Notes: generated by a model from the sequence alone, not told the origin. DNA of 25,272 bases from an uncultured Desulfobacteraceae bacterium (GCA_964463515.1 CAYXDR010000001.1:1-25272), one strand, 5' to 3'. Shown: positions 48 to 25,109, counted from the first letter of the stretch. Numbers and translations: made by a program.

Positions 48-188
48 GCTGAGCCTCTCAAACCGCCCCCGATACAGGTGCATACGGGAGGGACTTCTCA
101 CCGCCGAGGGAGCCCCCTCAAAAGGCTCCCTCGGCTTGCCCCGTGCAGGTGACAACTACCCTGACACAGGGGGCCACACGAGGGCAGC
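48..188. other. Long imperfect inverted-repeat (rod-like) element with a perfect 12-bp core hairpin at 103-135, downstream of the last gene of the cluster
   Basis: GCCGAGGGAGCC (103-114) is the exact reverse complement of GGCTCCCTCGGC (124-135), with a 9-nt loop. Flanking segments can extend the pairing imperfectly (CCCCC/GGGGG, CAGG/CCTG, CTC/GAG). There is no U-tract after the stem on the minus strand, so it is not a canonical intrinsic terminator. Function unknown. Confidence 0.45.
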
Positions 189-208: not shown

Positions 209-3200
209 TTATTTAGGATTAAGAAGTTCATGAGCGATTATATCGTAAAATTCTTGTTTTAGTTTCTGTGGCAATTTTCGGAATTGGACTAGCAATCCTT
301 CCACCTTGAGATTCTCAAGACGTTTCTTAATGGTTATTTTCATTTCTTCTATTTTGCCATGATCGTCGGAGGTGAGGTAGATGGGGGCGGCTTCTAACCG
401 CGATAAGAGGCGCTGGCAATTAGCGGCCTCCATATTTTTAATATTTTCCTGAGACAGAAAAACCTCTTCAATCCATTTACTTGAACGTTTTTTTCGATCT
501 GCAAGGATATGTTCCATAAATTTATCATAGATATCTTCAGCATCTCGCCAAAGAGGAAGATCTTCGTCTTTTTCTTCTTCTGAATGGATCTGCCGGATTC
601 TTTCATCCAAGAATTGACGGAGCTCGTTTTCAGACTTTGACAAATCGTTCAAATAAGAGAAGTCCTGTTCAAATTGAGTGAGGCGGTTTTCCATTTTATT
701 CAGTTCCTCGATATCGAGGTCTTCCCCAGAAAAAATTGCCATCAGGTCACGAACTTCAACATGGGCAGCGCGAATATCTTCAATGTTTGAAAAAGTTCTG
801 TCGAAAAACTCATCGCATCGGTTTCGATGCTGTTTTCGCTGCTCTTTGCACGCTTTTTGAAAATCAGAAAGTCTTGCAATAGCTTTGTCAATTTCGGGCA
901 CATCTTTTGATTTTTTTGCTCTTTTCAAATCTTTAGTTAACTCGTTGCAGCGGTCTATCCATTCTCCTAAAGTAGCAATTTTGGATGTATCGGAAACGGT
1001 TTTTCCGACTAAGAACGCCTTGGCTTCATCTACGATAAATGAGACTTTCTGTCGATTTTCCATATCAGCGATGATTTTTTGAGTACGCTCCTCCAACTGA
1101 TTATAGAAATCAGTCAGGCCCAATTCTTTAAGATTGCCGCCGATTTTGTTGATCATTTTGTCTCGAAAACTGTCAATCCTTGCAAAATGGATACAGCTTT
1201 GATTTTGTAGCCATTCTTGAAAAAGACTTTCAACGGCTGCTTTCGCTTGATTGACTATTTGTTCAACTTGTTCCAATTGTTCGTCAGTCCATGCGTTGGA
1301 TTCAGTACTCATCTTTTTATATCGGTGGAGTGCATCTTTGCCAATTCGACTAATATTACCCACATCTTCTTTTTCAAAAGCACTTTGCAGGTATTTTAAT
1401 TCTCTTTCTATGAAATTATCGAACTCTTTTAGCGCTTTTTCAGATCTTTCAGCCTTCTCCTTCAAATTTTTCCATCGTTCAAGTAACAGATCGGACGACA
1501 ATGGAATACGGAGGTTCAACTTTTCTGCATCCCACATAAAATCAACGCATTTAGTATGTTCCGTTTCCGCTGTCCAACGTTCAAGAAGTATTTGCCATTC
1601 ATCTGTGTCGACCTGTTCGATTTCCGTTTCATCTAGTTTTTTTAGATCGAGAAACTTTTTTACAAACGCATTACTTAGCCATACAGACCATGAAATACTT
1701 TCGCCATTCCAAATCAGTGATAGGGATTCTACACGGGGAGATATAAACGAGCCAATCAGCATGCCGGCCGAAGCGATATTGAATCCATAAGGCGGGGCGA
1801 TCAGTTCATGTGCCATTTCACCAAGATTGAGTTTTTGATCTTTTTCAAGCCTCACCTCAAAATTTTCAATAATGTCTCTTAATTGCTGATGCTCAGGATA
1901 CCAGCTAATTCTACCGTTTTCCTTGCTTAACACATGCCACGTTAGGAGCAGCACCTGTTTTGCTCGTCTCTGGAGGTTCTCCTCTCGTCGCGAAAGCCAT
2001 TCTTCGTTCAGACTTCCCCTGAACAGTTCAGCCGTGATCTCCCGGCAGTAATCAGCCGCTTTCCCTTTTGTTGTTTTTAAACCATCGAACGGAAAGGGGA
2101 CGATATTGGGGTAGGTGTTTTCGAAAAGGGATAAGCAGACCTTCTCAATTTGGTAGTTTTTCGGTCGGAAATCCCGCGGAAAAACAAAATTGCCTTCCTG
2201 AATAAGAACCATGAATTCGTTTTGGATTTCCTGTGATACGCGATATTGTTGATCGTCGATAAAATTCTTATATGTTTGTTTTTCTTTCACACTCAAACCA
2301 TCTGAAAGAACCCAATACTCTGCGATCAGGTGCCTAAGTGCATCTGTTTTATCGTGTAGGATTGCGACGAAGACCGGCGCGACGGGAACCTCATTATTTT
2401 CGTTTATTAGCGTGTCTAATGTTCGCGACAGACGCTGGCGTACTTCATCGATCCGAGCGTCAGCGGGAACATAGCAATAGATGAGCTGACCTCTGTGCTG
2501 ATCCGGCCTGACAGCAGCCTGCCAATCCATTACAGCCTGGTTCATATCCTGATCGATGCGCATCCTGTTGGACAGCACTGTCTGAAAACGCCATTCCGAC
2601 GTGATGATATTGTATTCAGCGGCAAATTCCGGATCAATATTCTGATACGTTTCCAAATCAGCCCATTTCCAGAGGTGTAGCGTGAACAGATCCTCGACTT
2701 TATCCAAAGAGATTTCTTTGATCTTTTTGTCCAAAAACCTTGTAAAACGGCTTCGGGGAATCCCCTCGCTGATAATATCGTACCGGACAAAGCGATCATT
2801 CCATTCCAAGACGTTGTATTCATGGGTCAGCTCTTTGGCGATGCGATCGACTTGGGCCTTCGATTGACCGGAAAGATGAGCCAGCGCCTGGTGGTAGTCG
2901 GTTTGATCAACGGCTCGCAGTCCCATTTTATCCGCAACTAGGATCGATAGAAGGACGCGCCGTTCTGTGTCCTTGAAATCATGTTGGTAACGTTCTTCTA
3001 CCGCCGAATAGGCATGGGCAAGCGAGCTGCTAGTAGCGAATTCCTCGGAACCGATCAGTTCCCGCAACAAAGGATCGTTGAGGCCGCGTTCCATCTGAAA
3101 TAGGGCTGTAGCCGGCAGGGTCCAGTCTTCCGGGGATTTATTTAGATTCCGATCCGATTCCTTCCGTAGCAGGGTGTCAATAAAGGTGACAGCAGACCTT

Positions 3201-4540: not shown

Positions 4541-4616
4541 TATGAGCCAAGATGAAAGTGATTCAGGTATTCATATGAATAGCGGCATCATTCCCGATCA
4601 TAGGAAAAATCATAGT

Positions 4617-5456
4617 TTAACTAACAATTCGGGATGTTAAATCCGCTGCCGCCATTTTACGTGTCAACACCCAGGGCTGCATCTGCTTGTCAATGGATAT
4701 AGCTCCGGTTGTCTGAATCGATGTCAGCGCCTGTTCACGTTGGGTATCGTTCCATCCATGAAGTCGTCCCCAAAAAGTTTCAGTCTCTAGATCGGATGCG
4801 GCTGCCTGACGGTCGCCAGGAAAATGCTGGTCCCACAAAGTTAACAGAAACCATGCCCAGCCATTGGCAAACTCGGGTGTTAGTGGGGCCGGGTTACGCC
4901 GCATGACGTTTTTCTCTGTGATGAGCGCACCGGTTTTTTTTAGGGCTGATGGCTCTTCATAAGTGCGTTGAAGGGGGCCGATGAGAGACCTATTTGCGAC
5001 GCCGAAAAGGCCGGATAGGTATTGATCCAGGATCTGACGGTCAAACTGGCGGCCGAGAACATCGCTGCCTGGCCCAAACGTGCGAAACCATATTTCCGCA
5101 CCGCCCCGGCGTCGACATAAATTCAGATGCAACAGCCACTGGTTGACTGCCTCCGATAGCTGGGGATCTTTGCCCAGCAGTGTTTCTCCCCACGCAGTAG
5201 GGCGAACTTGACGGTTCACACCCTTTCCTTTAGTGACAATCAACTCCATTCCCTGAGCGTATTGCAGGATTGAAGGGACTTTGCCGCTGGATTTGCCGGT
5301 AGGGATGCCGGTTTTTTCCGAGATTTGGGTGTTATCGCCATATCCGTCTTCGGCGGCAAACCGGAGCAATGCCGACAGATAATGTCGCTCCGGGACAAAG
5401 GTCTGGTGGAATCTCAATGCGAGACGGTCTTTACTTCTTTTGCCTGTTTCAGTCAT
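4617..5456 (-). CDS. DUF4007-family (SspB-like) protein, second divergent copy, 279 aa
   Basis: N-terminal RFHQTFVP matches the F.HETF motif of DUF4007. KDPQLSEAVNQWLLHLNL parallels WDPYLEDPASLWLLHW in the first copy. The start overlaps the upstream stop (ATGACTGA, 5449-5456). Confidence 0.75.
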   Translation of the reverse strand: MTETGKRSKDRLALRFHQTFVPERHYLSALLRFAAEDGYGDNTQISEKTGIPTGKSSGKVPSILQYAQGMELIVTKGKGVNRQVRPTAWGETLLGKDPQLSEAVNQWLLHLNLCRRRGGAEIWFRTFGPGSDVLGRQFDRQILDQYLSGLFGVANRSLIGPLQRTYEEPSALKKTGALITEKNVMRRNPAPLTPEFANGWAWFLLTLWDQHFPGDRQAAASDLETETFWGRLHGWNDTQREQALTSIQTTGAISIDKQMQPWVLTRKMAAADLTSRIVS

Positions 5457-8400
5457 TATCGCTATCCTTTTTCAATCGTTCTTGAAGAGAGGAGATATGA
5501 ATCTTGAAGATCTTGTTCTCCAGTTCGCCGGCCCCGGGGTTCAAAGTCGGCCCGAGCGAATAGCATTCGCCTCTGTTCAGTTTATTGAGGCGCGCTATCC
5601 ATGTTTCAGCTTTCTCATAACTACCTTGCTCCAGAATCCTTGCGTATTCTTTGACCTCAGTCTCTGCTGGTTTGAAAAAGAGCTTATGGGATGCCTGAAA
5701 AAGACGATCACGTTCTTCGCCCTTGAGATTACTCAGGGTCTGAGTGGCGAGAATCAAAGAGAGGCCGAACTTACGGCCTTCGGTAAGAAATTTCCCCAGG
5801 GGTGCATCTAGTCGATGGTCGAGATTCTGGATTTCGTCCAGAACGATGGGCAGGGGCACATCTTTTCGGCCTGAATTCGCGGCGTAATCATACAGATCCC
5901 ACAGAATGAACTCCGTCGCGATCCGGGCGATGTCCCTAGGAACGCCTGCCAACTGGAGGATATTTGCCCTGACCTCGCCGGAACCATACAACCTGTCCCA
6001 GTTCCCGGCCTCATCCTGCCCGAATAGCTTCATATGCACCATCGGACTCAATTTGTTGGCGAGGGTGAGCCCAGATGCACCCTGTTCCTTCAGCCGTTCC
6101 AGCAGCGCGGGGAATCGGAACTCCGCCCCCTCTTCGTCCAGTCCTGCCGCGATGGTTTCAATCAACACCGCCCGCTGCTGTTCCCCAACGTTCGAGTAAA
6201 CCGAATTGATCACCGTGGCGATGCGCCCCCCTACTGTGTGCGAATCTTCCGGTATGGGATCGAATCCAGTAATTCGCTGCTCTTGCTTTCGGAACGGGTT
6301 AATGGGCAACGGCTTTTGACGGACCAGGTGGGTCTCGGGCTTCAAGATATCGACGACTACGGGCTCCAGATGGTCGGGTAGAAACCCGTTGGTGTAATCG
6401 ACGATGATGGAGTTCTGGCCATTCAATCCCATTTCCAGGAGCAAGGCTTGAATCGCGTAGGTCTTTCCTACTCCGGATTTACCAAAAATAAGGATATGGC
6501 GATTGGTCAGTTCCGGATGCCCGAATTCCCAGTATATCTCCCGTTTGGCATCCGTTACGCCCAAGAAGAGGCGATTCGGCGGCGTGCGAGTTACAGTGGT
6601 CGATATAGGGGAGGTAGTTTCACCCTTTTCTAATGATTCCCCGCCCTCCTGTTGGGAGCCGGGCGTCCCATCATCCTGGTCTTTTGTCTCTGCAGATGCA
6701 GATTCCTCTGCAGGAGAAAGAGTGTCAGAAGGCTCAATGGGTTGTGATGTGGACGCCAAATTTGCGGCCGTTAGCGCTTGAGGAGACGATGTCGGAGGTG
6801 TTTCCGAAGACTTAAGGGGAAGGGCGACAGGGTAGTTGCCGCGGCCGATCCGCCGGATAAGGGCGCCCCCGCAGGAAATGAGCGGAATGGCGATTTCGCA
6901 ACCCTCCTGCTGAAACGACCATACTTCTACCGTTTGAAAGAAGTCGCTATTGTAATAATCGGTGGGTTCCGTCCATATCGTGAGTGCCGCCGCCTTCCAT
7001 TGAATCCGAAACCGCCCTTCGCCCAATGATTCCAGCGCGGTGGTAGCCAATTCAAGCTCCGCATTTTCCACCACTGCCTTGCTGGCGATCAACCGTTGTA
7101 GCTGAGCCCACCAGAAACGTTGATCAAAACGGAAAATCGGACTTGAGCCACTAAACCGGTAAGCGGCCTGATTCGATTCACCGCCTTTGGGCCTAAAACG
7201 GGCAACCAGATGATGCAATCCGTTCTCGAGCTGGGACCGGGCCTTCTGGATATGGCGATTGATATTGCTAGAGATTTTGCATTCCAGAATGGTCGCATGG
7301 ACATCGATGAGCCCATCTTCGGCCAGCGACGCGCTGATTCTTAAGAGATCGGGATACATTTCCCGCCCGCCGCCAATGCTTGTAAACCAGTGGGGAAAGG
7401 CGTCTAGCACGACTAATTCGTCGCAAAGGGTTGGGCCGTTGTGCGCCATTACCGGCAAGCAGCGCCGCACTAGGGCATAGGCAATCAAATCCCTGACCTG
7501 TTCGCCTCTGCCTGTAGCCCGTACCAGAGAGATGCCGGAGAGCTTCCGGGCTTCCCGAACAAGAAATCGCGCCGCGTTTTCGGAATCCACTGGCTCCCAT
7601 GGACCGAACAGGTTGTTGACCCTTTTCTGGATCATCTTTTGTACATCTAGCAGGCTCGCGCGTTCAGTAGAGAGGGTGTAGTTCAATTCACCATGCGTGC
7701 CGACCCCGGAGGCAAAACCGATGATCTCCCTTTTACCCTCACTCTGAGCGTCAAGGCTCCCTTTTTGGATCAGCCGTGTGTCCACCGACGGGTCCAGGCA
7801 AAGGACCCATGAAGCATTCCGGTGCATCTGATCCACTATTTTTGCCCAGGGCGTGAAATCGCTCTGGCTGAGGACGATGTGCTCCCGGTCAGGGGGAACG
7901 TCCGAACTCCACAAGCGAACACTTAATTCTGAATGGAGTGCAGCCAGCCGGAACCGCCGGTTGCTGATGATGCGTGATCGGAGGTTTGGGAATGATTGGC
8001 GCTTGTCTTCGCACCGGGGCGCTTCTAGAATGGGAAACTTGAGAAGGTGATCGAGATCCGGTTTATATGGAGAAGTCTTTTCATAATTTAAAGACGGTTC
8101 GCCGGTATCCATAAAACGGGTGAGGACAGCGATATCGACGTTCGCTGCTCCATTTTTCATCAGGATCAAGTAATCGTCAGGCTGGGTGATCACCTTCTGC
8201 GAAACGGAAAGACGGCAGTTTTGATAAAATTCATAGCGCGTGGCCCCTTCAGCTGGATCCCAGCGTTTTCTCCATTCGCTAAGCCACCGGGAGACCTCGC
8301 CGCTTTCTGCTACGTGCATGAAAAGGGAGAGGGAAAGATGGTACGGTGGATAATCCCGGGCTTCTTCGGCCCGTTCCTTCTTTAATTTTTGGTGGAGAAA

Positions 8401-10821
8401 ATCATCTACCCCGGCGATGATCGCCTGGATGTTGGCCGGGTTCAACACGACCAGGGATATACCGTCTTCTGCATGGGGATAGATCCGCGCATATTCCTTG
8501 AGGATTTGGGAAATGACCCGTGATTCGCGGGTTTCCCGAAACAGCGCTGCGTCCTTGATGTCGTCGTCTTCGGGCGTGTCGTACTGCTGAAGGATTTTCG
8601 AGGAAAGCGGTCCGCTTTGGGCGGGCGGTTTTCCCACAAGGTGAATGTGGCCAAAGGAAGCGACTCGGGTGTCCAGCGCCCCGGTTGGAGTCGAAACGAG
8701 ACCGAACAACGGATAGTTGATGGTGGCTAGGTCGCAGATGTCCCGCCAGGTATTTTCAGTAATTTTGGTGCTGCTGTCGTCGTTCAGAAAAAACGTCGCC
8801 CGTTCCAGCCACGCATGGGCTAGAAACGCTTCCCGGTGATTGAGCATGCCCATGAGGGCGGGGTGCAAGGCGGTCACAGCGGCATGAGGGACAAACCGCG
8901 CCCAGGGAAAATTGGCGGCCTCTTCTGCCTTCGGTTTTTCGGTCAGCAAAAACGCCTTGTAAACAATGGGCCGGAATCTCTGAAATTCCGTTTTCTGGAT
9001 CAAATTTTGGATCACGTTTTCATATCGGTAATACAACCGACTGCCGTCGATCCAATGATCCTGAAGGGCGGAAAAGTACCCTTCATCGACCATCGCCCCC
9101 AAAAATTTGGCATAGGCGTCAGACAGGTCCGCTATCCCCAGCTTGCTCAGGTCTTTCAGGTCGATGTTCTGCAAGTTTTCAAACAGGTTGGCAATCGTCA
9201 GTTTGCTTAGCCCCGCACGAAGCACCCGGTGGATTTCGGTCTCGTCCGGCGCGAAAAACAGTTCAGGGTAGTGCTGAATGTGGTATACTGGCAGCCAGAA
9301 ACTGGGCTTCTCGACTTCATGGATCGCCCTGGCCATGTCCAGAAGATTCCGAAACGGATGGGTTTCCGGAAGCGCCCACTTGAATTTGCGGCGGACGCTG
9401 AGGCCTCTGATGTCTGATTTGAAGAGAATGTCAAACTGGAAATGGGGAACCGCGGTTTTTGTCTGGCCAAAAGGAAGGCTATCCATATCCAGCAATCCGG
9501 AGGAAAACTCGGCGTTGTCTTTCCCTTCTTCGGATTCCGGGGCTATGGGGCCGATGTATTTTTCCAGAAATGCGTCGATGCCCCCCAGCAACCCCCGTGC
9601 GAGCTCCTTGTTGTCGTTGTCGAAATCAACAAATTTTAAACCTCTGAGATAAATTCCCTTCAACGCATCAAAGGGTTGGATGGGGGATTTCTTTTTCCGT
9701 GTGCATTGAAATCTAAAATCGATGAGGGTCTGCCACAGTGCGGTTAAAATCGCTTCCAAAGGCGGACCATGAAGGGTTTTGAAGCCCTTGGGTTCTTTGA
9801 TTTTGTCCTCTTTGCCCTCGTCCTCGTCTTCCTCAAGTTCAGGTTCAGGCTGCGTATAGGTGTATCCGAGGATTTCATCCTTGAGCACGGCGAAATCGAA
9901 ATGGAGCAGCCGCCTACGGGCTTCTGGATCGTTGTACTCAACATAGATTTTGATGCAATCGAGGAGTTCATCTTCGCCCCCGAAGGCACCGCGAAGGTCG
10001 AGCGTAGGCTCTTTGTTCGGCCGGACCCGGAAGTCTTCCACTTTTTGGATGGCTTTTTTTCTGTCGTTCTCGTTGAAATATTTCTGATAACTAAAAAAAT
10101 CGATGGCAGCTTCAACATATTTTTTCCACTTGCTCCCTTTCATCTTGTGGAGAAACGGAAGCCCCCAGAAGGACAGGTTGCCGTAAAAAGCGGTCAGGGC
10201 GGCGTAGCTATCCATGACGCTAGTAAAATCGATCCATTCCAGAAAATCGGATATGCGAATCAAGTCGCCGGCCGCATGACGGCGAAGGGTTTCCAGGAGT
10301 TCTTCCATCGCCTCCAAGTGGGTCTCTTCCGGATCGATTTGCTTGTCGTACAAAAACCTTTCCAGCCAGCCCTTGAACCGGCTTTGCATCTCTTCTTTCC
10401 AAATTGTGTCTACCCCTACCTGATAAAAGTCTTCCAGACTGCCCTGGTCCGTAGCCTGCTCGACTCCAACCAGCATCACGATCAGCCCATCCTTCCCGGA
10501 TTCAGGTGTCCACTCAAGGTTTCTGTAATGCGTGAGCCGGTTTTCCGTGTCCACCCACCCGGCACTTTTGATCTGCTCCAAAATCTGTCCATCTGCCGTT
10601 TCTTCCCATTGCCGCCAGAGCTTGTAAGCGACTATGAATTGGAAGTCGATGTCTCGTTTGCTTTTTAGCCAGTATTCAGAGAGTTCGTTCCCAACTTCTT
10701 TGACCGCCGCGGGCGGTAGGGAGGAAAGAAACACGCGGAGTTCGCGGGTGTTGCGGTTTTTGAGGATAGGATGACATAGGGTTTTCAGATAAGTCAGAAG
10801 ACTCCGTGTAAAATAACGCAT
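5449..10821 (-). CDS. sspH: DndH(DptH)/SspH-like restriction protein with a PD-(D/E)xK nuclease motif and a C-terminal HerA/FtsK-type ATPase, 1790 aa
   Basis: C-terminal HILIFGKSGVGKT Walker A (6460-6483), IIVDYTNGF, IVLDEIQNL Walker B, and EGRKFGLSLILATQ (arginine finger and sensor of HerA/FtsK). YPDLL...ILECK lies at 7276-7353. Its size and third position after F- and G-like genes fit DndH/SspH. Confidence 0.72.
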   Translation of the reverse strand: MRYFTRSLLTYLKTLCHPILKNRNTRELRVFLSSLPPAAVKEVGNELSEYWLKSKRDIDFQFIVAYKLWRQWEETADGQILEQIKSAGWVDTENRLTHYRNLEWTPESGKDGLIVMLVGVEQATDQGSLEDFYQVGVDTIWKEEMQSRFKGWLERFLYDKQIDPEETHLEAMEELLETLRRHAAGDLIRISDFLEWIDFTSVMDSYAALTAFYGNLSFWGLPFLHKMKGSKWKKYVEAAIDFFSYQKYFNENDRKKAIQKVEDFRVRPNKEPTLDLRGAFGGEDELLDCIKIYVEYNDPEARRRLLHFDFAVLKDEILGYTYTQPEPELEEDEDEGKEDKIKEPKGFKTLHGPPLEAILTALWQTLIDFRFQCTRKKKSPIQPFDALKGIYLRGLKFVDFDNDNKELARGLLGGIDAFLEKYIGPIAPESEEGKDNAEFSSGLLDMDSLPFGQTKTAVPHFQFDILFKSDIRGLSVRRKFKWALPETHPFRNLLDMARAIHEVEKPSFWLPVYHIQHYPELFFAPDETEIHRVLRAGLSKLTIANLFENLQNIDLKDLSKLGIADLSDAYAKFLGAMVDEGYFSALQDHWIDGSRLYYRYENVIQNLIQKTEFQRFRPIVYKAFLLTEKPKAEEAANFPWARFVPHAAVTALHPALMGMLNHREAFLAHAWLERATFFLNDDSSTKITENTWRDICDLATINYPLFGLVSTPTGALDTRVASFGHIHLVGKPPAQSGPLSSKILQQYDTPEDDDIKDAALFRETRESRVISQILKEYARIYPHAEDGISLVVLNPANIQAIIAGVDDFLHQKLKKERAEEARDYPPYHLSLSLFMHVAESGEVSRWLSEWRKRWDPAEGATRYEFYQNCRLSVSQKVITQPDDYLILMKNGAANVDIAVLTRFMDTGEPSLNYEKTSPYKPDLDHLLKFPILEAPRCEDKRQSFPNLRSRIISNRRFRLAALHSELSVRLWSSDVPPDREHIVLSQSDFTPWAKIVDQMHRNASWVLCLDPSVDTRLIQKGSLDAQSEGKREIIGFASGVGTHGELNYTLSTERASLLDVQKMIQKRVNNLFGPWEPVDSENAARFLVREARKLSGISLVRATGRGEQVRDLIAYALVRRCLPVMAHNGPTLCDELVVLDAFPHWFTSIGGGREMYPDLLRISASLAEDGLIDVHATILECKISSNINRHIQKARSQLENGLHHLVARFRPKGGESNQAAYRFSGSSPIFRFDQRFWWAQLQRLIASKAVVENAELELATTALESLGEGRFRIQWKAAALTIWTEPTDYYNSDFFQTVEVWSFQQEGCEIAIPLISCGGALIRRIGRGNYPVALPLKSSETPPTSSPQALTAANLASTSQPIEPSDTLSPAEESASAETKDQDDGTPGSQQEGGESLEKGETTSPISTTVTRTPPNRLFLGVTDAKREIYWEFGHPELTNRHILIFGKSGVGKTYAIQALLLEMGLNGQNSIIVDYTNGFLPDHLEPVVVDILKPETHLVRQKPLPINPFRKQEQRITGFDPIPEDSHTVGGRIATVINSVYSNVGEQQRAVLIETIAAGLDEEGAEFRFPALLERLKEQGASGLTLANKLSPMVHMKLFGQDEAGNWDRLYGSGEVRANILQLAGVPRDIARIATEFILWDLYDYAANSGRKDVPLPIVLDEIQNLDHRLDAPLGKFLTEGRKFGLSLILATQTLSNLKGEERDRLFQASHKLFFKPAETEVKEYARILEQGSYEKAETWIARLNKLNRGECYSLGPTLNPGAGELENKIFKIHISSLQERLKKDSDND

Positions 10822-10844
10822 ATCTTCTCCGTCACAATTTTGGA

Positions 10845-12527
10845 TTATTTATCAGTGCTCTTTTCAGAAAACGGGTTTTCAATCAACGACACAGCATCTG
10901 ACAGCGGGGTCATAAAACCGGTGGCCAGCAACTTTTCTTCCAGCCATTGTTTGTGCCCGGCTGGCGCGCTCAGCTTCTGGTCGGGGTAGGTCCAGGCGAT
11001 GGCGTCGTTGAGCAAGGTTCCGGAAACCGCCGCGCCGTAGTGGCGGTAGAGGGCTTTCAGGAAGGTGGTCAAGCGCATCCGTTCGCCCGGCGGGATCAAG
11101 GCCAGTACAAAATACCGAAGCAAATTTTCTTGCAGCACGAAACGGGCGCCTGGCCCGGTTTTAGGGGCGATCAGGCCGATTTTCTTGCCCAATTTCACAA
11201 AAAGAGCCGTGCCCTGTTTGTCGGCATTCCGGTAGGTTTTTTCGCCGCTCTTTAGCGTCTGAATGCGACGGGTCCGGAGTGCGGCATGGAACATTTCCTT
11301 CACCCTGACCAGATTTTTCCGGGCGGCGGTTTTGAGAGCCCGGTCATCCAATTCGGGGTTCGTGATGATCCAGGCGTAGGGCTGGAGAGCGTCTTCGTCA
11401 TGAAGACCGGGATTGCCCCCCCAGTAGCGCCCGGCTTGGGCCGACAGGCTGCGTAGGACCTGGAACACGCAGCAAAGTTTGAGCATCTCGATTTTTTCCA
11501 CAGGGTCTAATAGCGCGGCGCTAATGTTTCGCAGTTCTATGGCGAACAGATAGGCTTCCGGCCAGCTTTCTTCCGGGCACCAGCCACATGTCGCACCTTT
11601 GGTCTCCCGGTCGATTTCTAAGGATGCGTCGGTCTCATTTTTTTCAATCCACGATGCGATACTGTTCAATATCGGGGCAGGTTTGCGAGATAGAAAGTCT
11701 TTGAGATTGTTTTCAATCTCCTCTTGGAGATTCTTCGCAGCGCCTGGGTAGCCCGCCCGTTCTTCAAATTCAAGGAGCTCGGGGGAATCTATCAGGCGGA
11801 AGAGATTGCATAGCTGAAGGTATAGGAGTTCGCCACCGCGGGCGAGGAAATCATGTTTGGAAAATGAAAACATTCTATTTTTCCAGGCTTGATGCCAATT
11901 CAAATTCGGTTCTTTCTTGCCTCTATTTTTTTCCCAAATGGCTTCTCCTGCGATTAATTCGGGAGCTAGTGGAATAAATGAATGTGCGGACCAGCCTCTA
12001 TTTCCCGAAACCCCTATAAATCCCATTAGAACTTGCTCAATTAATTCGATAGCGTCGCTTTTTGATAGGGATGGACTAGTATGTAAATGGTGTTTTAGAT
12101 TTGAAACTAGCTCTTGATATTTTTCAATGTGGCTTTTGTGCCTTCCTTCAACACCTGAAATCCCTAAAAACGAAAACAGCTTTATAATTATGTGCATTCT
12201 AGGATAATAAATCAAAGGTTTACCTGGGTCGACTTCTTGTAATTCACTAACTCTTGGAAAGCCTTTCCATTTATCTGAGTCTTTATACCCAAGCATATAA
12301 TTCGTTCCAATTTTTTTATCTGAAATAAAAATCAGCATGAATTCCACAAGATATTCGAGCTCTGTTTGATCATCTCGGACTCGTCGTCCAAACAATCGTA
12401 TAGCAGGATTAGCATCAGCGTTTTCATCCTCACCAATGTTTGGAAACTGCCTAACGTTACCGTTCGAAATTCTAGCGGATGACTTCAATTCCAATCCATT
12501 TTGCCATTGAAAATAATCCGATGGCAT
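10845..12527 (-). CDS. sspG: DndG(DptG)/SspG-like protein, 560 aa
   Basis: It lies between the F-like and H-like genes (gaps of 49 and 23 bp). The C-terminus (FLKALYRHYG...LEEKLLATGFMTPLSDAVSLIENPF) resembles the winged-helix-type tail seen in G-position proteins of DndFGH-like modules. Assignment rests on recalled motif plus synteny. Confidence 0.6.
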   Translation of the reverse strand: MPSDYFQWQNGLELKSSARISNGNVRQFPNIGEDENADANPAIRLFGRRVRDDQTELEYLVEFMLIFISDKKIGTNYMLGYKDSDKWKGFPRVSELQEVDPGKPLIYYPRMHIIIKLFSFLGISGVEGRHKSHIEKYQELVSNLKHHLHTSPSLSKSDAIELIEQVLMGFIGVSGNRGWSAHSFIPLAPELIAGEAIWEKNRGKKEPNLNWHQAWKNRMFSFSKHDFLARGGELLYLQLCNLFRLIDSPELLEFEERAGYPGAAKNLQEEIENNLKDFLSRKPAPILNSIASWIEKNETDASLEIDRETKGATCGWCPEESWPEAYLFAIELRNISAALLDPVEKIEMLKLCCVFQVLRSLSAQAGRYWGGNPGLHDEDALQPYAWIITNPELDDRALKTAARKNLVRVKEMFHAALRTRRIQTLKSGEKTYRNADKQGTALFVKLGKKIGLIAPKTGPGARFVLQENLLRYFVLALIPPGERMRLTTFLKALYRHYGAAVSGTLLNDAIAWTYPDQKLSAPAGHKQWLEEKLLATGFMTPLSDAVSLIENPFSEKSTDK

Positions 12528-12576
12528 TTTTGCAGCTCCTTTCCCCTATTTAGATCTAATATTGACTTGTTCTGGC

Positions 12577-15500
12577 TTACACAATTTCCAAAAAACCGTC
12601 CGACAGCATCACGCGAAATTGTTCCAGTTTTCCATCATGATTCAGTTGAATTAACCGCATCTCTTCGTGAGATTCGCTAGGGAGTCGGGCTGTGAGTAAA
12701 TTTTTAAACCACTCAAGCCGATCAAGGTAACCCAGATTCAACCGCTGTCCGAGTTCCCCTTCGCTGCGCAACAGCACGAAATCTAGAAATGGCAGATCAA
12801 GGGTCAAGTGGATTTCAGGGAAATAACGGTCTCGCAAAACAAGATGATATCGCTGTGGCCTGAATGTTTGGTAGATTTCCTCTAGAACCAGCTCAAAATT
12901 TGAAAAGGCGATCTCCGCAAGAAGAATCTGGACGCTCTGGCGAAGTGCTTCGTTACGTCGGTTGAGAGTAATGAACAGTTCGTTTCCGCGCCGGGTCTCC
13001 GGGATATAAAAACCCGTGTACTGCTCCAGTAGCACGTGCAACACTTTTTGCTTCAACTCTTCCCGACGTGTAGGCGTTAGTTTCGTCGGCGAGCATTGCC
13101 AGGATTCGGTTTCTACCAGCATGGGGGAGCCAGTGAACCCGCCTACGAAGTCCTTCTCACTCCCTGCTTCTGCAAATGCGCCGAACACAAAAAAGAGTCG
13201 CCTGAACTCCTGGCGGAAACGGGCGCCGACGGCCTCGGACCCATAGCCGGAAAGCGTCATTCCCCGAAGGCTCTCGAAAACTGGTTTCAGCGTGTCCGGC
13301 AGTAGAGGGGTCGGGCCCTCTTCGAAAGTCCACAGCACCCTGTCTAACGACAAAAAGGGTCTGGCGCCCATCTCTATCGGCATCAGACATTGAATAGCTT
13401 TGAGTCGCTGGGCCTTTTCATCTATAGAAGCGCCGTGAAACCCAAAGAAGCGATTGTAAAACAAATATGCGTTGACAGGCGGGGGCTTAGGGCTTTCAGC
13501 TATTTCCCGAATGCGCCCACAGTCTAGCCCGCCCGTCAGGCTATATGCTAGATGAGCCGACACCTGCCGCAAGGTCAATCGTTTGCCGTATTCATACAGC
13601 AGGCGATAAATCAAGGCGATCCGTTCCGATGTTATTTCATAGCTCTCCCGAATTGCTTTAAGATTCATCTGAACGGGGCAATGGGCATAAATATCGCACG
13701 ACCGGCACCCGTCCCAATTCTCGTTATCGACGAGCCGATGAAAAAGTTCCCGGGAGATTTGAAGGTTGTCGAGCTGCGACAGGTTGATCAGGACAAAGGG
13801 CACGCCAAGGTCCTTGAATTTCGTGGGTTCTTTTTCCCGGAGAAGTCCTAGAAGACTGTTGCCGATTTTGATTTCTGTGAGACCGTAGGCTGGGGCACAC
13901 GCTTCTAAGATCTCCAAAAGACGACCCGTGTTGGAAATGATCAGCCACCGCCCATCTCCTTGGGCAGCTCGGTTTAGAGCCCTTGCAGCTTCTTCGTCGG
14001 TCAGCTCACTCAAGTCCTTGATCAGGTGTATTTTATAGCCGTTGATTTGTTTTTCTTCATGGGACCCCAAGCCGGATTCTAAAGGCTCTGACATGTCCTT
14101 TTTTTCCAGCCTTTTAAAGATTTCCAGGCAAATCGTTGATTTGCCGTCCCCGGCATGCCCGGTCAGGATAATGTTCCCCCCATCGGTTCCTGTCAGCTTT
14201 TCCCACACCAGATCGGTCACGGGCCAGGCGACATGGATGGATCCGAAAAACAGGCTCCGAGCTTGGGCCTCAGCCAGCGCATTACGATTGTCGGCGGTGG
14301 TGTTGTGAAGCTGGTTCAAATAATCCAAGAAATTGCCTGCGGTCTCTAGCGCGTTTTCCCTTGCAGGCGGTGCTTCAGGGCTATACACGTGCCATTTTTC
14401 CGCCGATTCCGCCGTTTGTGGCGTCACTTGGACCGAGTCCTCATCGCTGAAAACAAAATCGAATTCATCTCTCATTTCGTTGATATTTTGAAAGCGTGCA
14501 TCACGAAACGGCTGAACGGCCTTGTGAAGCCAGAGTGAAAGCTCCTCTGGAATGTCCTTGCGATAGGAAGCTGCGAAACGCGGCGTGGCGGTAAGGGCAG
14601 GGGTCCCGGAATAAGGACTGACGCCGCACAGCCATTCAAACAGGGTGACGCCTAGGGCAAATAAATCTCCACTTTCGCAAAACTCATACTCGGCGCCCTG
14701 GAACAAATCTGGTGCCACATAGGCGTCTGTTCCCATATAGGGCCCTACGGATGGAACGCCCGAAGCACCGAAGTCGATTAATACAGGGGTGCCGTCCTCT
14801 TTGAGGAGTATGTTGTCGGGTTTGATGTCGTTGTGCAAAATGATGGTTTGGCGCGAGGGATCGGCATGCAAAGTCGCAATTCCTTCCATCAGACAAAATG
14901 CGACATGCCGGAAAAGGGGCAGTTCCGGGCGAATGCTGTTGTCGATCCGGTTTCGCAGCGGATTGCCGGAGACCAGTTCCAGAACCAAGTAATAGCGGCC
15001 ATCTGCCAATTGGTTGAAGGTTTCATAGCCGACAATACAGGGATTGGATACGGTTTTTAGGGCATCCCTTTCGGCGAAAATCCGATCAAGAGCCGAATCC
15101 TGGTGGTACAATTTTATCGCAACCCAGTTGTCGCTGCCCTGAAGCGCTTTGTAAACTTGGGAGTCGCGGCCTTTCCCGATCCATTCTTGAATGGTGTACA
15201 CACCGAAAATATCGCCTGGTTTTAGGATTCGATTGGATTCTCGGTGGGTTTCTTCAGCGATTTCTTTCAGTTCAAGCTGTAACTCGCCGATTTCCTGGGG
15301 CCGGTCCTTTCGTTGGAATTGGATCATCATGACGATGTCTGTTCGAAGGGATTCAGGAATGCCGATTTTGGCCAGTTTTGATTCGATAGATTCATACACG
15401 GATTGAGCGTCGGATATCAGATCCGTGGAATACTCGAAAGGCGGTTTGCCGATGAGCAGTTCATACGCTATAACCCCTAAACTGAAGATGTCCGTTGCCT

Positions 15501-17217
15501 CCGCAAAAGGCTGATGATGGTAAAGTTCCGGGGCGAGGTAAGGGGACCTCTGAAGTTGGAGGTCGTCGGGAAGAACCGTCAACCGGTTATCTTCAGGCAA
15601 GTAGGACAGATCGAAATTCATCAGTTTTGGCGTAGTCCCAAACATCATGATGTTTTCCGGGGTTAAATTGCGATGGACAATGCCTTCCTGATGAACAGCT
15701 TCAAGACCTTTGGCAATGCCTCGTATGATAGGCAAGGCCTTTTCAAGAGAAAAGGGGCCGCTTTTCTTCATCACATTGGCGAGCGTACCTTCTTTTCGAG
15801 ACCAGTCTGAAGCTTCGATAATCAGGCCTTCTTCATGATAAATGTCCCAAACCTTCAAAATGTTGGGATGATCACTTATCCTAGTCAGTGCTTTGAGACT
15901 GTTTCGGCTTTTGTTCCGCTGGTTCTCCCGTTCTTCCTGGCCTAGAGTGGGATCGATGGAAAAAATGCGGAGCCGCTTGACGGTTTGGAGCTGATTGCTG
16001 GTAGGTCTTGCCAATAGTTCAATGAGATGCTGCGAGTCAGTGAGATTTTCCAAAATCTCATAGCCCGGAATCTCGAGGCCCTTCCGCCGAGGGGATTGGG
16101 CTTCGTTGCGGAGGCGTTCCGCAATCTGCCTAGCTTGGGCGGTGGTCAGTATGGAATTCGGCTGCCCTAGGCAGCGTTTGAAATATTTCGTAAAGGTGGC
16201 AATGCTGTCGAAGGTAGGGGCTTTTTTTTCCGTTTTCGCTCCATCGGCGTTGTGGACCGTAGCATCCGGGTTTGTCAGAAGAACAATAGATTGAAAGGGA
16301 TAATCTTTAGGTATAAAGGGAAGTTTCTTTCTGCAAAACCCTCGCAGAACTTTTGCTTTGTAGTTGTTGGAGCGATGCGGATCTGTACATGGGGTCTGTT
16401 CGGGCCCCCTGAACCATTCGTAGGGGCGAACTTCGATTTCTCCGAACCAGTGTTTAAGTTCGACAATGGCTGTACAAAAGGATGAGACTACAATAAGGTC
16501 GCATTCAAGGTATTGGCTGGTAGAAGGGTCGTAAAGATCGAAGTTGGGGATTAGTTCAATTTGCTTTCCGAGAGCAGCGAAAATTTGTTTGAGAGCATTT
16601 TTTTCATGAGGAAATTTGCTTTTAATGTCCATATATTTTCTTCCTGATGCCATCATTACACGTGCTTTTGAATCACTAGTGATATCTGAATAATCAACAC
16701 TTGATTGCTCTTCCAAATTACTCTTGATTGCTTCAACATGGTATTTTGGAGAAAATATTGGTCCGGAAGAAACAATTTGAGATATTATTTCTTCTAATTT
16801 CGACTTGATAACATCACGATATCTTTTTGTTTTCAAAAGATTATACACATCAGGATTCAAAAATGAATAATTTATAATTTCATTGATCAATCTTGGTGTA
16901 AATCTTTTACGTTTGTTATATTCATTTTCTTTTCCTTGAAACACCTTGTGATTCCAAAAATTTGATGTGATAAGATGGTAATATGGATATTCAGGAAAAC
17001 ACTCATCTTCATTGGTGAATTTTTTCCATAAATATCTAAACATATTGATCAGTTCATCATCAAACGGAAAGCGATTCTCACGATTCGGATTTTCTTCAAT
17101 TAAATAACAGATTGAAAGAAGCAACACAAATTTATTTGGATTTGCTTTTTCAGATGACTTCCAAACGGATATCCTATTAATTTGTTTTAGTAATTCATCT
17201 ATTTGCAAATCAGACAT
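12577..17217 (-). CDS. Multidomain fusion: SBD-like domain + NERD nuclease + pseudokinase + Ser/Thr kinase + DndF/SspF-like P-loop domain, 1546 aa
   Basis: Residues about 1-145: NKFVLLLSICYLIE...EYPYYHL...FW. About 196-345: FPHEKNAL, ECDLIVV, IVELKHW (NERD). Kinase 1 has HRN(515-517) and NFD(534-536). Kinase 2 has IGKGRDSQVY, VAIK702, HNDIKPDN (H795) and DFG (D815). The C-terminal part has IILTGHAGDGKS (K1026), IKDLSE, ISNTGRL and a C..C.....CP cluster. The start overlaps the sspD stop by 19 bp. Confidence 0.8.
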   Translation of the reverse strand: MSDLQIDELLKQINRISVWKSSEKANPNKFVLLLSICYLIEENPNRENRFPFDDELINMFRYLWKKFTNEDECFPEYPYYHLITSNFWNHKVFQGKENEYNKRKRFTPRLINEIINYSFLNPDVYNLLKTKRYRDVIKSKLEEIISQIVSSGPIFSPKYHVEAIKSNLEEQSSVDYSDITSDSKARVMMASGRKYMDIKSKFPHEKNALKQIFAALGKQIELIPNFDLYDPSTSQYLECDLIVVSSFCTAIVELKHWFGEIEVRPYEWFRGPEQTPCTDPHRSNNYKAKVLRGFCRKKLPFIPKDYPFQSIVLLTNPDATVHNADGAKTEKKAPTFDSIATFTKYFKRCLGQPNSILTTAQARQIAERLRNEAQSPRRKGLEIPGYEILENLTDSQHLIELLARPTSNQLQTVKRLRIFSIDPTLGQEERENQRNKSRNSLKALTRISDHPNILKVWDIYHEEGLIIEASDWSRKEGTLANVMKKSGPFSLEKALPIIRGIAKGLEAVHQEGIVHRNLTPENIMMFGTTPKLMNFDLSYLPEDNRLTVLPDDLQLQRSPYLAPELYHHQPFAEATDIFSLGVIAYELLIGKPPFEYSTDLISDAQSVYESIESKLAKIGIPESLRTDIVMMIQFQRKDRPQEIGELQLELKEIAEETHRESNRILKPGDIFGVYTIQEWIGKGRDSQVYKALQGSDNWVAIKLYHQDSALDRIFAERDALKTVSNPCIVGYETFNQLADGRYYLVLELVSGNPLRNRIDNSIRPELPLFRHVAFCLMEGIATLHADPSRQTIILHNDIKPDNILLKEDGTPVLIDFGASGVPSVGPYMGTDAYVAPDLFQGAEYEFCESGDLFALGVTLFEWLCGVSPYSGTPALTATPRFAASYRKDIPEELSLWLHKAVQPFRDARFQNINEMRDEFDFVFSDEDSVQVTPQTAESAEKWHVYSPEAPPARENALETAGNFLDYLNQLHNTTADNRNALAEAQARSLFFGSIHVAWPVTDLVWEKLTGTDGGNIILTGHAGDGKSTICLEIFKRLEKKDMSEPLESGLGSHEEKQINGYKIHLIKDLSELTDEEAARALNRAAQGDGRWLIISNTGRLLEILEACAPAYGLTEIKIGNSLLGLLREKEPTKFKDLGVPFVLINLSQLDNLQISRELFHRLVDNENWDGCRSCDIYAHCPVQMNLKAIRESYEITSERIALIYRLLYEYGKRLTLRQVSAHLAYSLTGGLDCGRIREIAESPKPPPVNAYLFYNRFFGFHGASIDEKAQRLKAIQCLMPIEMGARPFLSLDRVLWTFEEGPTPLLPDTLKPVFESLRGMTLSGYGSEAVGARFRQEFRRLFFVFGAFAEAGSEKDFVGGFTGSPMLVETESWQCSPTKLTPTRREELKQKVLHVLLEQYTGFYIPETRRGNELFITLNRRNEALRQSVQILLAEIAFSNFELVLEEIYQTFRPQRYHLVLRDRYFPEIHLTLDLPFLDFVLLRSEGELGQRLNLGYLDRLEWFKNLLTARLPSESHEEMRLIQLNHDGKLEQFRVMLSDGFLEIV

Positions 17218-18092
17218 GTCTCTGCCTCTTCCTCTTCCCTGATATTATTCAGAATGCTATCTCCTTCTGTTCGGAAATCCATATTTTGAAAATGATCAAG
17301 AAGTTTTTTCTTTCCTAATGATGTTTTATTAGTAACCTTTGAAGCTGCGTTTTTAAGGATTTCATCTCGCCTATCAATGAGCTCCCTTAGCGTTTCACCT
17401 TCACTCCAGGTATAATTTTTTTTCCTGCTATTGATATTTTTGTAATCAAAATTAGATTCCCTGAAATTGTCATAAAATTCCTCGAATTGACAGGCCTTCT
17501 GAAAACACTCAGGATGGTTGTCATATAACGCAATCCATTCTTCTTTCCTTTGAAAAAAGCAAAAATAACAACCCGATCTACTTCTCCATTTATAGTAATC
17601 AGGAATCCCAACATCTGTTTCCGCCAATATTTGAAAAACATCTCTTTTTACTATATTATCCTCAATAAATGGATAAAATGGCACAATATTGTTTTTGCCA
17701 TGGGGATCATAGCCCATTCTGTCTTCATCAGCTCGCAAGGCAATATAAATATAGGCAAAATCATTGCCTATATATTTTTCAAAAGGTTCAATTTTGAGTT
17801 GCCGGGTACACCAACGATTTGTTGGTGAAGGAAGACATCCATAATATATTCTTAGGAGCGCAGTAAAACGATCCGTTTGCGGTTTATTTTTCGGAAGCCT
17901 AATAATTCTGATCTGAAGATAGGCCTCCATGCGCTCCAAGTATTCATATGTTTCTGGCAATTCATGGCCCGTATCCAAAAAAACATATTCTATATTCGGA
18001 ACTCGATCTTTCAGATACACCGCCAATGCGGCGCTGTCTTTCCCGCCCGACAAAGCCAGAATATGTCTTTTATTATCGCTTTTTCTTGGCAT
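17199..18092 (-). CDS. sspD: SspD-like PAPS-reductase-family (PP-loop) DNA phosphorothioation enzyme, 297 aa
   Basis: PP-loop LSGGKDSAAL (about 18035-18052), VFLDTGHELPETY, RWCTRQLK, RSGCYFCF and a C-terminal CLIC. It is adjacent to DUF4007 and SspC-like ATPase genes. A GGGAAG SD-like sequence lies upstream. Confidence 0.88.
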   Translation of the reverse strand: MPRKSDNKRHILALSGGKDSAALAVYLKDRVPNIEYVFLDTGHELPETYEYLERMEAYLQIRIIRLPKNKPQTDRFTALLRIYYGCLPSPTNRWCTRQLKIEPFEKYIGNDFAYIYIALRADEDRMGYDPHGKNNIVPFYPFIEDNIVKRDVFQILAETDVGIPDYYKWRSRSGCYFCFFQRKEEWIALYDNHPECFQKACQFEEFYDNFRESNFDYKNINSRKKNYTWSEGETLRELIDRRDEILKNAASKVTNKTSLGKKKLLDHFQNMDFRTEGDSILNNIREEEEAETCLICK

Positions 18093-18277
18093 CTATTTTT
18101 CTTCCCTGTTAACTGCATTTTTAATTAGTTCAACAATACCTTAAGGCAACATCCAAATGAGCAAGATTTCGATCATATTAGTCCAAGTACCATTAGAACA
18201 ACGCTGTTTCTGTATGCAACAATTCGAAATACATTTGATTTGATAAGAATTAATTAACTTGATAGTGTAAGTATATT

Positions 18278-18305
18278 ATTTTAGAAAATATGAACATACA
18301 AACAA
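18278..18305 (-). promoter_or_regulatory. Possible sigma70-type promoter upstream of sspD
   Basis: On the minus strand, TTGTTT-16 nt-TAAAAT lies in the only long intergenic gap of the cluster (18093-18413). The region is very AT-rich, so a chance match is plausible. Confidence 0.25.
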
Positions 18306-18413
18306 TATGAAAGCCATGGTTGCAGAATAAAACATAAATATTCTAAAAGTCTTTACGGGCTTTTCTTTTCTTGAAATCGGTCAACCACCATCCCAAGTTG
18401 CAAATTCAGCAAC

Positions 18414-21884: not shown

Positions 21885-22849
21885 TGCGCCCTTCTCTTAT
21901 AGTAAGCTTCCAGCGTCGCATCCCGCAATTCCATGGGATCGCTCTCGAACTGTAGTTGTTGATTGCCGTAGGATTCGGTGAACACGACTCCGTCTATTCC
22001 AGATGTAGCGCGGTCCAGCCGCCTGCCAATGTCGGTCTCGGAAAGCTGGAAGACGCGACCGGGGCTGTTCCACCCATAGGCAATGGCGCTCAGAGCCAGA
22101 CTTTTCGCCCCCGCGCTGTAGTGATGTGCGAACTCGAAGCAGGCAGCCATAAAGATCGCATCCGGCAGATCTGCCTTCTCGCCTAAATGGAATCGATAAT
22201 AGCCCTTGGTTTCCGCGGGCATTATAAAGCCCAAATGGGTAAAGGGGCATTCGATCTCGTCGGATTTGCTGTCTCGGGGGGGCGCATACATCCGAATAAA
22301 ACAGGAAGCGTCCTTTTCGAAGGAGGAGGCCGATAAGCGGCTGAATCCTGGGATGTCGGCGGTATATTCGCTGAATTTCCGGGCTAGCTCCTTGGCAGCA
22401 AAGCCTCCGGCAGCTGACTGGTTGATCGAAATCGGCCATGCGGGAGCCACGATTGGCGGGACAAACAGATTCCAGTGGAGCAGCCACAGGCTCGCAGGAT
22501 CTTCTAGGTAGGGATCCCATCCATCGTCGGCAAGGAGGGCTTTACCCAACGGCGCGGGTTGCATGAGACCGCTCACTTTGGGAACATCAGCTTTATCTTT
22601 AGGGGCGATGACGTGGAAGGCCACACACCAGAACCGGATGGATCGGACCATGTTCTTGCCCACCCCTAGGATTTCGATGGCGTCGTCTCGGTCGAAGATG
22701 GCTGGATCGCCGGATTGTGAATCGGCTCCATTTAAATCCAAAAACCCCGCTACTCCGTCATACCCTTTCTTGAGCCATCCATAGCGAGGGCAAAAAGTTT
22801 CGTGGCGGGCGAAAAATCCGGTTCGGGTTTTGTGTTGAGGGGAGGTCAT
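21881..22849 (-). CDS. sspB: SspB-like DUF4007-family protein, 322 aa
   Basis: FARHETFCPRYGWLKKG, LGVGKNMVRSIRFW, WDPYLEDPASLWLLHW and IECPFTHLG are characteristic DUF4007 motifs. AGGAGA SD is 6 nt before the ATG. Confidence 0.88.
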   Translation of the reverse strand: MTSPQHKTRTGFFARHETFCPRYGWLKKGYDGVAGFLDLNGADSQSGDPAIFDRDDAIEILGVGKNMVRSIRFWCVAFHVIAPKDKADVPKVSGLMQPAPLGKALLADDGWDPYLEDPASLWLLHWNLFVPPIVAPAWPISINQSAAGGFAAKELARKFSEYTADIPGFSRLSASSFEKDASCFIRMYAPPRDSKSDEIECPFTHLGFIMPAETKGYYRFHLGEKADLPDAIFMAACFEFAHHYSAGAKSLALSAIAYGWNSPGRVFQLSETDIGRRLDRATSGIDGVVFTESYGNQQLQFESDPMELRDATLEAYYKRRAQ

Positions 22850-25104: not shown

Positions 25105-25109
25105 GGGGT

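Follow-up and report, generated by a model that had tools for sequence, protein, structure and literature searches.

The window analysed here, a stretch of 25,272 nucleotides from an uncultured Desulfobacteraceae bacterium (GCA_964463515.1, CAYXDR010000001.1:1-25272), is one entire contig of a 3.5-Mb metagenome-assembled genome (MAG). Between positions 209 and 22849, it carries eight long open reading frames (ORFs), all on the minus strand and arranged head to tail, which encode, in this order, SspB, SspC, SspD, a 1546-aa SspF fusion, an SspG-like subunit, an SspH-like subunit and two further proteins, g7 and g8. Judging from the sequence, the locus probably represents one eight-gene phosphorothioate (PT) restriction-modification defence system of the Ssp type, in which a writer half is joined to a five-gene extension of the SspFGH module. 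It appears to be a recurrent variant of the known Ssp PT defence, in which host DNA carries sulfur in its backbone and DNA without this mark is attacked, and its newest element would be the five-gene restriction module with the second, SspB/SspC-like pair g7-g8.

When eight adjacent genes are considered as a candidate system, the essential question is whether they belong together. We view them as one system and not as mere neighbours because their junctions overlap or are tiny, because their order is kept across phyla, and because the g7-g8 pair is present in every major clade of the F-core tree. Specifically, more than 30 loci, drawn from many unrelated phyla, contain the gene set with identities of 25-50%, a recurrence far in excess of what chance would give. 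The full order of the window, B-C-D-F*-G-H-g7-g8, is kept at 32-48% identity on a Desulfobulbus chromosome and on contigs of Desulforegulaceae, Muiribacteriota and Syntrophomonadaceae, and its downstream part, F-G-H-g7-g8, recurs in about 30 loci, including those with a plain F or with an F that carries only the sulfur-binding domain (SBD) described below (Spirochaeta, Chlorobiaceae, Endozoicomonas, Mailhella, Ruminococcus and others). The three distant g8 homologues that were looked up, from Intestinibacter, Solibacillus and Dethiobacter (24-34% identity), all lie in the F-G-H-g7-g8 order, and a maximum-likelihood tree built on the F core shows the pair in all of its major clades. SspBCD is placed either upstream or convergent downstream across the loci: five loci have no upstream SspBCD (L010, L011, L021, L026 and L029), and all five have sspD just past g8 on the opposite strand. 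In Solibacillus, SspB-SspC follow g8.

The possibility that two or three independent systems, namely SspBCD with SspFGH plus a separate DUF4007/ATPase system, merely lie side by side in a defence island has to be weighed against these data. Defence genes do cluster in islands, a YhcG-type nuclease is encoded directly upstream, and the GC content of the locus is a mosaic. Nevertheless, every g8 homologue examined is preceded by F-G-H-g7, the overlap of the H and g7 genes is 8 bp long here and 1-4 bp long in loci L001 and L003, and the pair stands alone in none of the loci fetched, so that we consider mere adjacency very improbable. The original prediction had envisaged one unit assembled from parts of three systems that are normally separate. 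The co-occurrence of the two parts in other genomes, on which that view depended, is indeed seen, and the recurrent order, together with the presence of the pair throughout the F-core tree, indicates instead that the locus represents a single subtype within the Ssp/DndFGH family, which recurs and is vertically coherent.

Of the 120 other genomes searched in the order to which the host belongs, only 1 has a g8 homologue, a patchy distribution that is the pattern expected of a mobile defence system; a search of PLSDB for plasmid carriage of g8 gave no match. Cultured carriers of the five-gene restriction module include Desulfofundulus thermosubterraneus DSM 16057, Marinobacter zhanjiangensis KCTC 22280, Dethiobacter alkaliphilus and Solibacillus.

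The second SspB/SspC-like pair

In direct profile searches, g7 gave a weak match to DUF4007 and g8 a weak match to SspC. When families are compared with hhalign, the g7 family aligns with the SspB family over the full length (probability 99.4%, E 7.5e-22) and the g8 family aligns with the SspC family over about 750 columns (100%, E 1.4e-38), with residues 74-950 of g8 placed on residues 42-830 of SspC. The AlphaFold2 (AF2) model of g7, with a mean local confidence (pLDDT) of 93.6, consists of three winged-helix modules, and its best matches in the PDB are the SspB structures 6LB9/6JUF (E 6e-8, TM score 0.71), the next matches being at TM scores of about 0.2; a sequence search of the PDB with g7 gave no match, SspB being reached by the fold search only. 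In g8, the Walker A (GYGTGKSH) and Walker B (FDEFGR) motifs are invariant, and its nearest labelled neighbours by language-model features are the BrxC, PglY and DUF6079 clusters. On this evidence, g7-g8 is recognizable as a true paralogue of the SspB-SspC pair, and the duplicated SspB/SspC-like core that had been predicted from the sequence is borne out by the two family alignments and by the fold match of g7.

The C-terminal 514 residues of g8 yield a confident model made of long helices only, for which no fold or sequence match in the PDB and no nuclease or other effector domain was found. All 120 of the listed g8 homologues are annotated as hypothetical, and only one of them carries a Pfam domain. 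At E <= 1e-30, 167 clusters of 50% identity make up the g7 family. The combination of a DUF4007/BrxA-like triple winged helix-turn-helix (wHTH) protein, g7, with a BrxC/DUF6079-like ATPase, g8, here lies beside the gene of a HerA/FtsK translocase, and no PglZ, STAND, GNAT or TGT gene is present at the locus.

A full-length SspB-SspC paralogue with intact ATPase motifs could also act on the writer side, as an additional targeting pair that would use the one SspD jointly with SspB-SspC and provide a second modification motif or strand, and the lack of any nuclease or other effector domain in the searches with the g8 C-terminus agrees with such a role. This assignment is, however, rather improbable: in about 30 loci the pair is joined to H with an overlap or a short gap, it remains beside F-G-H where SspBCD is encoded on the other strand or at the far end, and the C-terminal third of g8 does not align with that of SspC.

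Two variations on the pair were seen in other loci. In four Bacillaceae loci (L056, L059, L062 and L064, at about 18.2-20.9 kb), the pair that follows F-G-H is closer to SspB/SspC of the window than to g7/g8 (23-26% identity) and may be either a writer or a third pair lineage. In the NERD-kinase-F locus L002 (21035-24065), a 71-aa ORF and genes for AbiEi and HNH proteins are located between H and the g7-like gene, and no SspBCD is found within 10 kb upstream.

The SspF fusion and its restriction partners

The fusion protein runs from an N-terminal SBD through a linker, a NERD domain, a pseudokinase and a Hanks-type kinase to the DndF/SspF core (Table 1). Of the domain calls in the original prediction, those of SspBCD, the SBD, the NERD/pseudokinase/kinase block of the PglW-like type, the F core and H proved right by family and profile matches, as did that of the second SspB/SspC-like pair discussed above, and G is matched at its C-terminus. 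The fusion is real and coding because its SBD segment is under purifying selection (pN/pS, the ratio of nonsynonymous to synonymous change, 0.20, with no indels, as compared with L005, a 95%-identical public MAG relative, GCA_046498185.1), because the whole 4641-nt gene shows no indel versus L005, and because the sspD/SBD/NERD region is continuous, without indels, in metagenome contigs of another study. An assembly chimera or a frameshifted fusion is ruled out by the same comparisons. The full 1546-aa frame is intact in L005 (6119-10759), where the NCBI annotation begins at an internal Met (1359 aa), so that the SBD is left unannotated. Full-length relatives of the fusion protein number in the hundreds, the nearest public one being labelled Desulfatiglandaceae. 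In one long-read Bacillota MAG (L018, 9908-14064), NERD-kinase-F is split in three frames of 157, 530 and 720 aa, which reflects either a decayed copy or long-read indel errors.

A profile built from 35 fusion N-termini (alignment A3) matches the sulfur-binding domain SBDHga (PDB 8H0L) over the whole domain (E 1.6e-40, query 8-162 on chain 5-155), and the NCBIfam model PT-DNA_restrict matches the SBD at 8.7e-8. The sulfur pocket of SBDHga is formed by H25, K26, L75, P76 and H79 (PMC10602919), and all five positions, with Tyr for L75, are kept in the family consensus PHK...YP..H. In the window, the Lys as well as Y77, P78 and H81 of the pocket are kept, and Asn stands in place of H25. The linker that follows (residues 151-195) varies in length and sequence in A3, and its pN/pS versus L005 is about 1.6, based on few counts.

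The catalytic residues of the NERD domain are conserved, D240 and K255 in all 35 homologues and E253 in 34 of the 35. The first kinase domain is degenerate: it has HRN517 and NFD534-536, is devoid of the glycine loop and the VAIK lysine, and retains the catalytic Asp in only 8 of the 35 homologues. In the second kinase domain, the glycine loop, K702, E716, HND797, N802 and DFG815 are invariant or nearly so among homologues. The SspF model of PADLOC covers residues 962-1293 of the fusion, where the NTP-binding core carries an invariant Walker A motif (GHAGDGKS), the KD pair 1067-1068, and Asn1096 at the Walker B position, a feature that has been published already for DndF (PMC10853773).

On the F-core tree, at least three gains or losses are required for the SBD, and likewise for the NERD-kinase block; both are N-terminal accessories of F that vary between proteins and have repeatedly been acquired or lost. 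An association of the SBD with SspBCD that looked perfect in 10-kb flanks was dropped, as whole-genome searches found SspBCD convergent downstream in loci from which it had appeared to be absent.

Rakesh et al. read the N-termini of DndF as suicide effectors, and the SBD, NERD and kinase domains could similarly be a backup that fires when restriction by FGH is inhibited, without a part in self/non-self discrimination; HEPN or GNAT domains occupy this N-terminal position in other DndF proteins (PMC10853773). The repeated gain and loss of these domains and the intact active sites of NERD and kinase 2 are in line with such a function; however, the SBD is a reader and not an effector, and so fits it poorly, and it is fused to F with neither NERD nor kinase in six loci (L016, L024, L027, L037, L054 and L055), in all six of which at least sspD lies directly upstream. 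We therefore regard a suicide function as unlikely, albeit less so than either of the two alternatives considered above. The kinase activity of PglW is reportedly needed for its normal defence phenotype, which also weighs against a suicide function.

As to the partners of the fusion, homologues of the SspG-like protein are always encoded between F and H. The SspH-like protein matches the PADLOC models of DndH (1.1e-54, at the C-terminus) and SspH (8.7e-19, in the middle) and, in the PDB, DptH (7ES4, 4.9e-4). It combines a restriction endonuclease (REase) domain with a C-terminal ATPase of the FtsK/HerA type, its motifs being PD1157-1158...E1180-x-K1182, Walker A at 1447-1453, DE1662-1663 (Walker B), R1683 (arginine finger) and Q1694 (sensor glutamine), each kept in at least 90% of 48 homologues.

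Writer genes, junctions and neighbourhood

The three genes of the SspBCD PT-modification module are encoded together, adjacent or overlapping. SspB matches PF13182 over its full length (4.3e-79) and the PADLOC SspB model (3.3e-89); SspC matches the PADLOC SspC model at E = 0 (1117 bits) and BrxC at 1.2e-115; SspD, the sole copy in the genome, matches PADLOC SspD (2.3e-92) and PF01507 (1.3e-11). A cysteine desulfurase is available in trans, as at least three strong desulfurase-like genes are present elsewhere in the genome (PF00266, 1e-83 to 7e-71). In some Firmicutes, a PAPS-reductase gene of about 580-590 aa precedes sspB (L033, 2581-4311; G005:C119:4712-5017, from the genome of L036), which suggests an SspD that has an additional domain and recalls BrxP.

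Coordinates and sequence confirm the co-directional arrangement and the junctions of the original prediction: the sspB stop and the sspC start share GTGATG, sspD and the fusion gene overlap by 19 bp, gaps of 49 bp and 23 bp separate the fusion from G and G from H, respectively, and the DUF4007-like gene g7 begins within H, as noted above. Translation of sspC starts at GTG 21884 or at ATG 21881. The more likely start of g8 is the ATG at 4522, behind GGGAGG, which gives 1437 aa, a length equal to that of the database entry P0121, and leaves a 94-bp gap to g7.

Table 1. Features of the locus, with coordinates in the window
Feature	Coordinates	Strand	Evidence
sspB, DUF4007 triple-wHTH DNA-binding subunit of PT writer, 322 aa	21881..22849	-	PF13182, PADLOC SspB
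sspC, BrxC/ORC-Cdc6-type AAA+ ATPase of PT writer, 1156 aa	18414..21884	-	PADLOC SspC, BrxC
AT-rich 321-bp sspC-sspD spacer, possible internal promoter region	18093..18413	-	sequence and GC profile
sspD, PP-loop/PAPS-reductase-type sulfur transferase, 297 aa	17199..18092	-	PADLOC SspD, PF01507
SspF fusion gene, 1546 aa, 4641 nt	12577..17217	-	SBD, NERD, two kinase domains, SspF matches
Fusion residues 1-150, SBD, predicted PT reader	16768..17217	-	profile match to PDB 8H0L
Fusion residues 151-195, unconstrained linker	16633..16767	-	variable in alignment A3
Fusion residues 196-400, NERD PD-(D/E)xK nuclease domain	16018..16632	-	PF08378 7e-8
Fusion residues 401-665, pseudokinase	15223..16017	-	kinase fold PF07714
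Fusion residues 666-950, Hanks-type Ser/Thr kinase, active by motifs	14368..15222	-	PF00069 3.4e-58
Fusion residues 951-1546, DndF/SspF core: derived P-loop kinase-like NTP-binding and C-terminal alpha+beta domain	12577..14367	-	PADLOC SspF 7e-34
sspG-like subunit, 560 aa	10845..12527	-	PADLOC SspG, C-terminus
sspH/dndH-like subunit, 1790 aa, REase domain and C-terminal HerA/FtsK translocase	5449..10821	-	PADLOC DndH, SspH
g7, second divergent SspB-like triple-wHTH protein, 279 aa	4617..5456	-	hhalign and AF2 fold match
g8, second divergent SspC/BrxC-like AAA+ ATPase, long helical C-terminal region, 1437-1443 aa	209..4540	-	hhalign vs SspC family

The GC content along the window is 0.35-0.41 in three stretches, namely sspD with the SBD (~16600-18400), the 5' part of G (12000-13000) and the 3' end of g8 (1-2000), as against 0.53-0.60 elsewhere. 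The AT-rich sspD/SBD stretch is coding and under purifying selection, and indels among related metagenome contigs are confined to the sspC-sspD spacer. A promoter and terminator scan of the locus gave no signal above shuffled controls. About 70 nt past the g8 stop there is a GC-rich 12-bp inverted repeat, GCCGAGGGAGCC ... GGCTCCCTCGGC (window ~100-140, minus strand), a possible operon terminator with no T run behind it.

Upstream of sspB, the window contains two other genes on the minus strand. Directly upstream, a gene for a 381-aa PD-(D/E)xK nuclease of the YhcG/DUF1016 type (23523-24668; PF06250 1.8e-54, PF17761 1.8e-30) may be another gene of a defence island. Next to the contig end, by which it is cut, is an ADP-ribosylglycohydrolase gene (24793-25272, weak match, E 2e-4), which is also found upstream in the close relative L005 (1-239) and in the distant Desulfobulbus locus L001 (457-1224); its presence may be a coincidence or that of a conserved neighbour.

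Proposed mechanism and relation to known systems

Several observations weigh against a single PT system of this composition. The SspF, SspG and SspH profile matches are weak beside those of SspBCD, and the SspG match (PADLOC, 7.7e-16) is confined to the last 120 of 560 residues. No sspA gene is present in the contig, and in three MAGs with the five-gene module, the assemblies of which are incomplete, no sspD was found. The SBD of the window has Asn in place of His25, and the H25A mutant of SBDHga showed weaker binding in the published assay (PMC10602919). Furthermore, kinase-bearing F proteins that have no SBD also occur with SspBCD (L010, L011 and L018), which means that coupling to PT does not require the SBD. 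Finally, the g7-g8 pair is not universally required, because three-gene SspFGH works without it (PMC8092258) and because some loci, in Chromatiaceae, Thiofilum, Psychrobacter and a few Firmicutes, have no such pair and resemble the published three-gene cassette.

Building on the gene identities, the intact catalytic motifs, the paralogy of the two pairs and the conserved synteny, we infer the PT chemistry, the assignment of sensing, and the roles of the kinases and of g7-g8 as follows. SspB, SspC and SspD would put sulfur on the host DNA backbone at a short motif, the sulfur being provided by a cysteine desulfurase encoded elsewhere in the genome. SspH would act as a restriction nuclease and HerA/FtsK DNA translocase, with SspG and the SspF core responsible for DNA and nucleotide sensing. 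The SBD on SspF is most likely the reader of the PT mark, through which the complex would either spare marked self DNA or be licensed by the mark. NERD and the pair of pseudokinase and active kinase most likely gate the response or else provide a backup, through phosphorylation of host or phage proteins. The g7-g8 pair, a paralogue of SspB-SspC without a sulfur transferase, could scan DNA and load or direct FGH onto the target, as the reader counterpart of the writer's scanner. That the locus is a machine for modification, PT sensing and phosphorylation-gated restriction, as was proposed originally, may reasonably be inferred from the sequences.

A more specific version of this scheme can be put forward only tentatively. 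Here, g7-g8 would be a dedicated scanner of the reader that recognizes the same motif as the writer, finds it in the unmodified state, and loads or activates SspF*-G-H, with the SBD vetoing an attack on PT-DNA and the kinase setting the threshold. Should this be the case, PT systems would acquire the shared-specificity logic of classical restriction-modification, and self/non-self discrimination would be explained even with PT present at just a minority of the sites. The subtype described here bears on an acknowledged question, that of PT sensing by DndFGH and SspFGH: it appears to have a recognizable PT reader directly on the restriction complex, along with a second scanner pair, and therefore offers separable, mutable parts for tests of self/non-self discrimination, namely the SBD pocket, the kinase residues, the NERD site and the Walker motifs of g8. 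The five-gene restriction module is widespread, also in cultured strains, and, as such, is missing from PADLOC 2.0; therefore current annotation under-describes these loci.

The closest known system is SspABCD-SspFGH of Vibrio anguillarum FF-93, which combines SspBCD with a three-gene restriction cassette (Wang et al. 2021, mBio, PMC8092258). As in FF-93, an SspB-SspC-SspD writer here adjoins an F with a Walker A motif, an SspG-like subunit, and an H with an FtsK/HerA-like C-terminus, and the desulfurase is supplied in trans; the FF-93 system likewise relies on IscS in trans (PMC8092258). Unlike the three-gene side of FF-93, the window has five restriction genes, with the second SspB/SspC-like pair placed after H, and, unlike the F protein of FF-93, its F has about 950 extra N-terminal residues that comprise the SBD, NERD, pseudokinase and kinase. 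The G and H proteins of the window match the profiles of the Ssp family in part only.

The layout of the fusion is itself on record. DndF proteins in which a wHTH is followed by NERD, an inactive kinase and an active kinase have been listed, with the SBD equated with a wHTH (Rakesh, Aravind and Krishnan 2024, NAR, PMC10853773), and the window fusion shares with these variants the exact domain order, the derived P-loop kinase core, the canonical Walker A motif and the Asn that takes the Walker B position. That study treats DndFGH as a three-gene stand-alone system and the N-terminal extras as suicide co-effectors; in its text and one supplement, neither a connection with SspBCD nor a reference to the g7-g8 pair was found. 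The wHTH of Rakesh et al. is here seen, by the profile match to 8H0L, to be a close relative of the solved SBD. A 2026 paper by these authors (PMC12839542) restates the wHTH-NERD-kinase variants of DndF and notes the same triad in PglW, and a clade of SBD homologues (3%) joined to an unknown domain and a kinase has been described (Hu et al. 2023, NAR, PMC10602919). The F-fusion layout and the SBD-kinase clade had thus been catalogued computationally, whereas no paper on g7-g8 within a DndFGH/SspFGH module, on the five-gene module or on the eight-gene unit was found in a search of limited extent, from which absence is not provable.

The N-terminal domain family matches SBDHga of Hga, from Hahella ganghwensis, over the whole length, with the Pro, His and Lys of the pocket kept. 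Whereas Hga is a type IV enzyme that cuts the PT-DNA of invaders (PMC10602919), the SBD of the window belongs to the restriction arm of a predicted PT-making system and would have to read a self mark, because this system itself is predicted to make PT.

Membership in two other families of defence systems was considered and rejected. A BREX/Pgl hybrid is ruled out, since neither PglX nor PglZ is found among the window proteins and the PglW score is far under the cut-off (NCBIfam, 192.6 bits vs 990). Similarly, membership in MADS is ruled out by the score of MAD6, which is under its cut-off (NCBIfam, 386.1 bits vs 460, residues 205-785 only), by the lack of any methyltransferase in the contig, and by g5 and g6 (the fifth and sixth genes) matching no NCBIfam MADS family at E <= 5; the sole MADS-type match to H is that of PADLOC mad8 to the HerA domain. 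Unlike in PglW, the NERD-pseudokinase-kinase triad of the window is followed by the DndF core and not by the wHTH/iSTAND half of PglW. In common with PglW of BREX type 2/Pgl and MAD6 of MADS, however, the triad occurs in a DNA-mark-dependent defence system, and the locus would tie this block to a third kind of DNA mark, beside those of BREX-2 and MADS.

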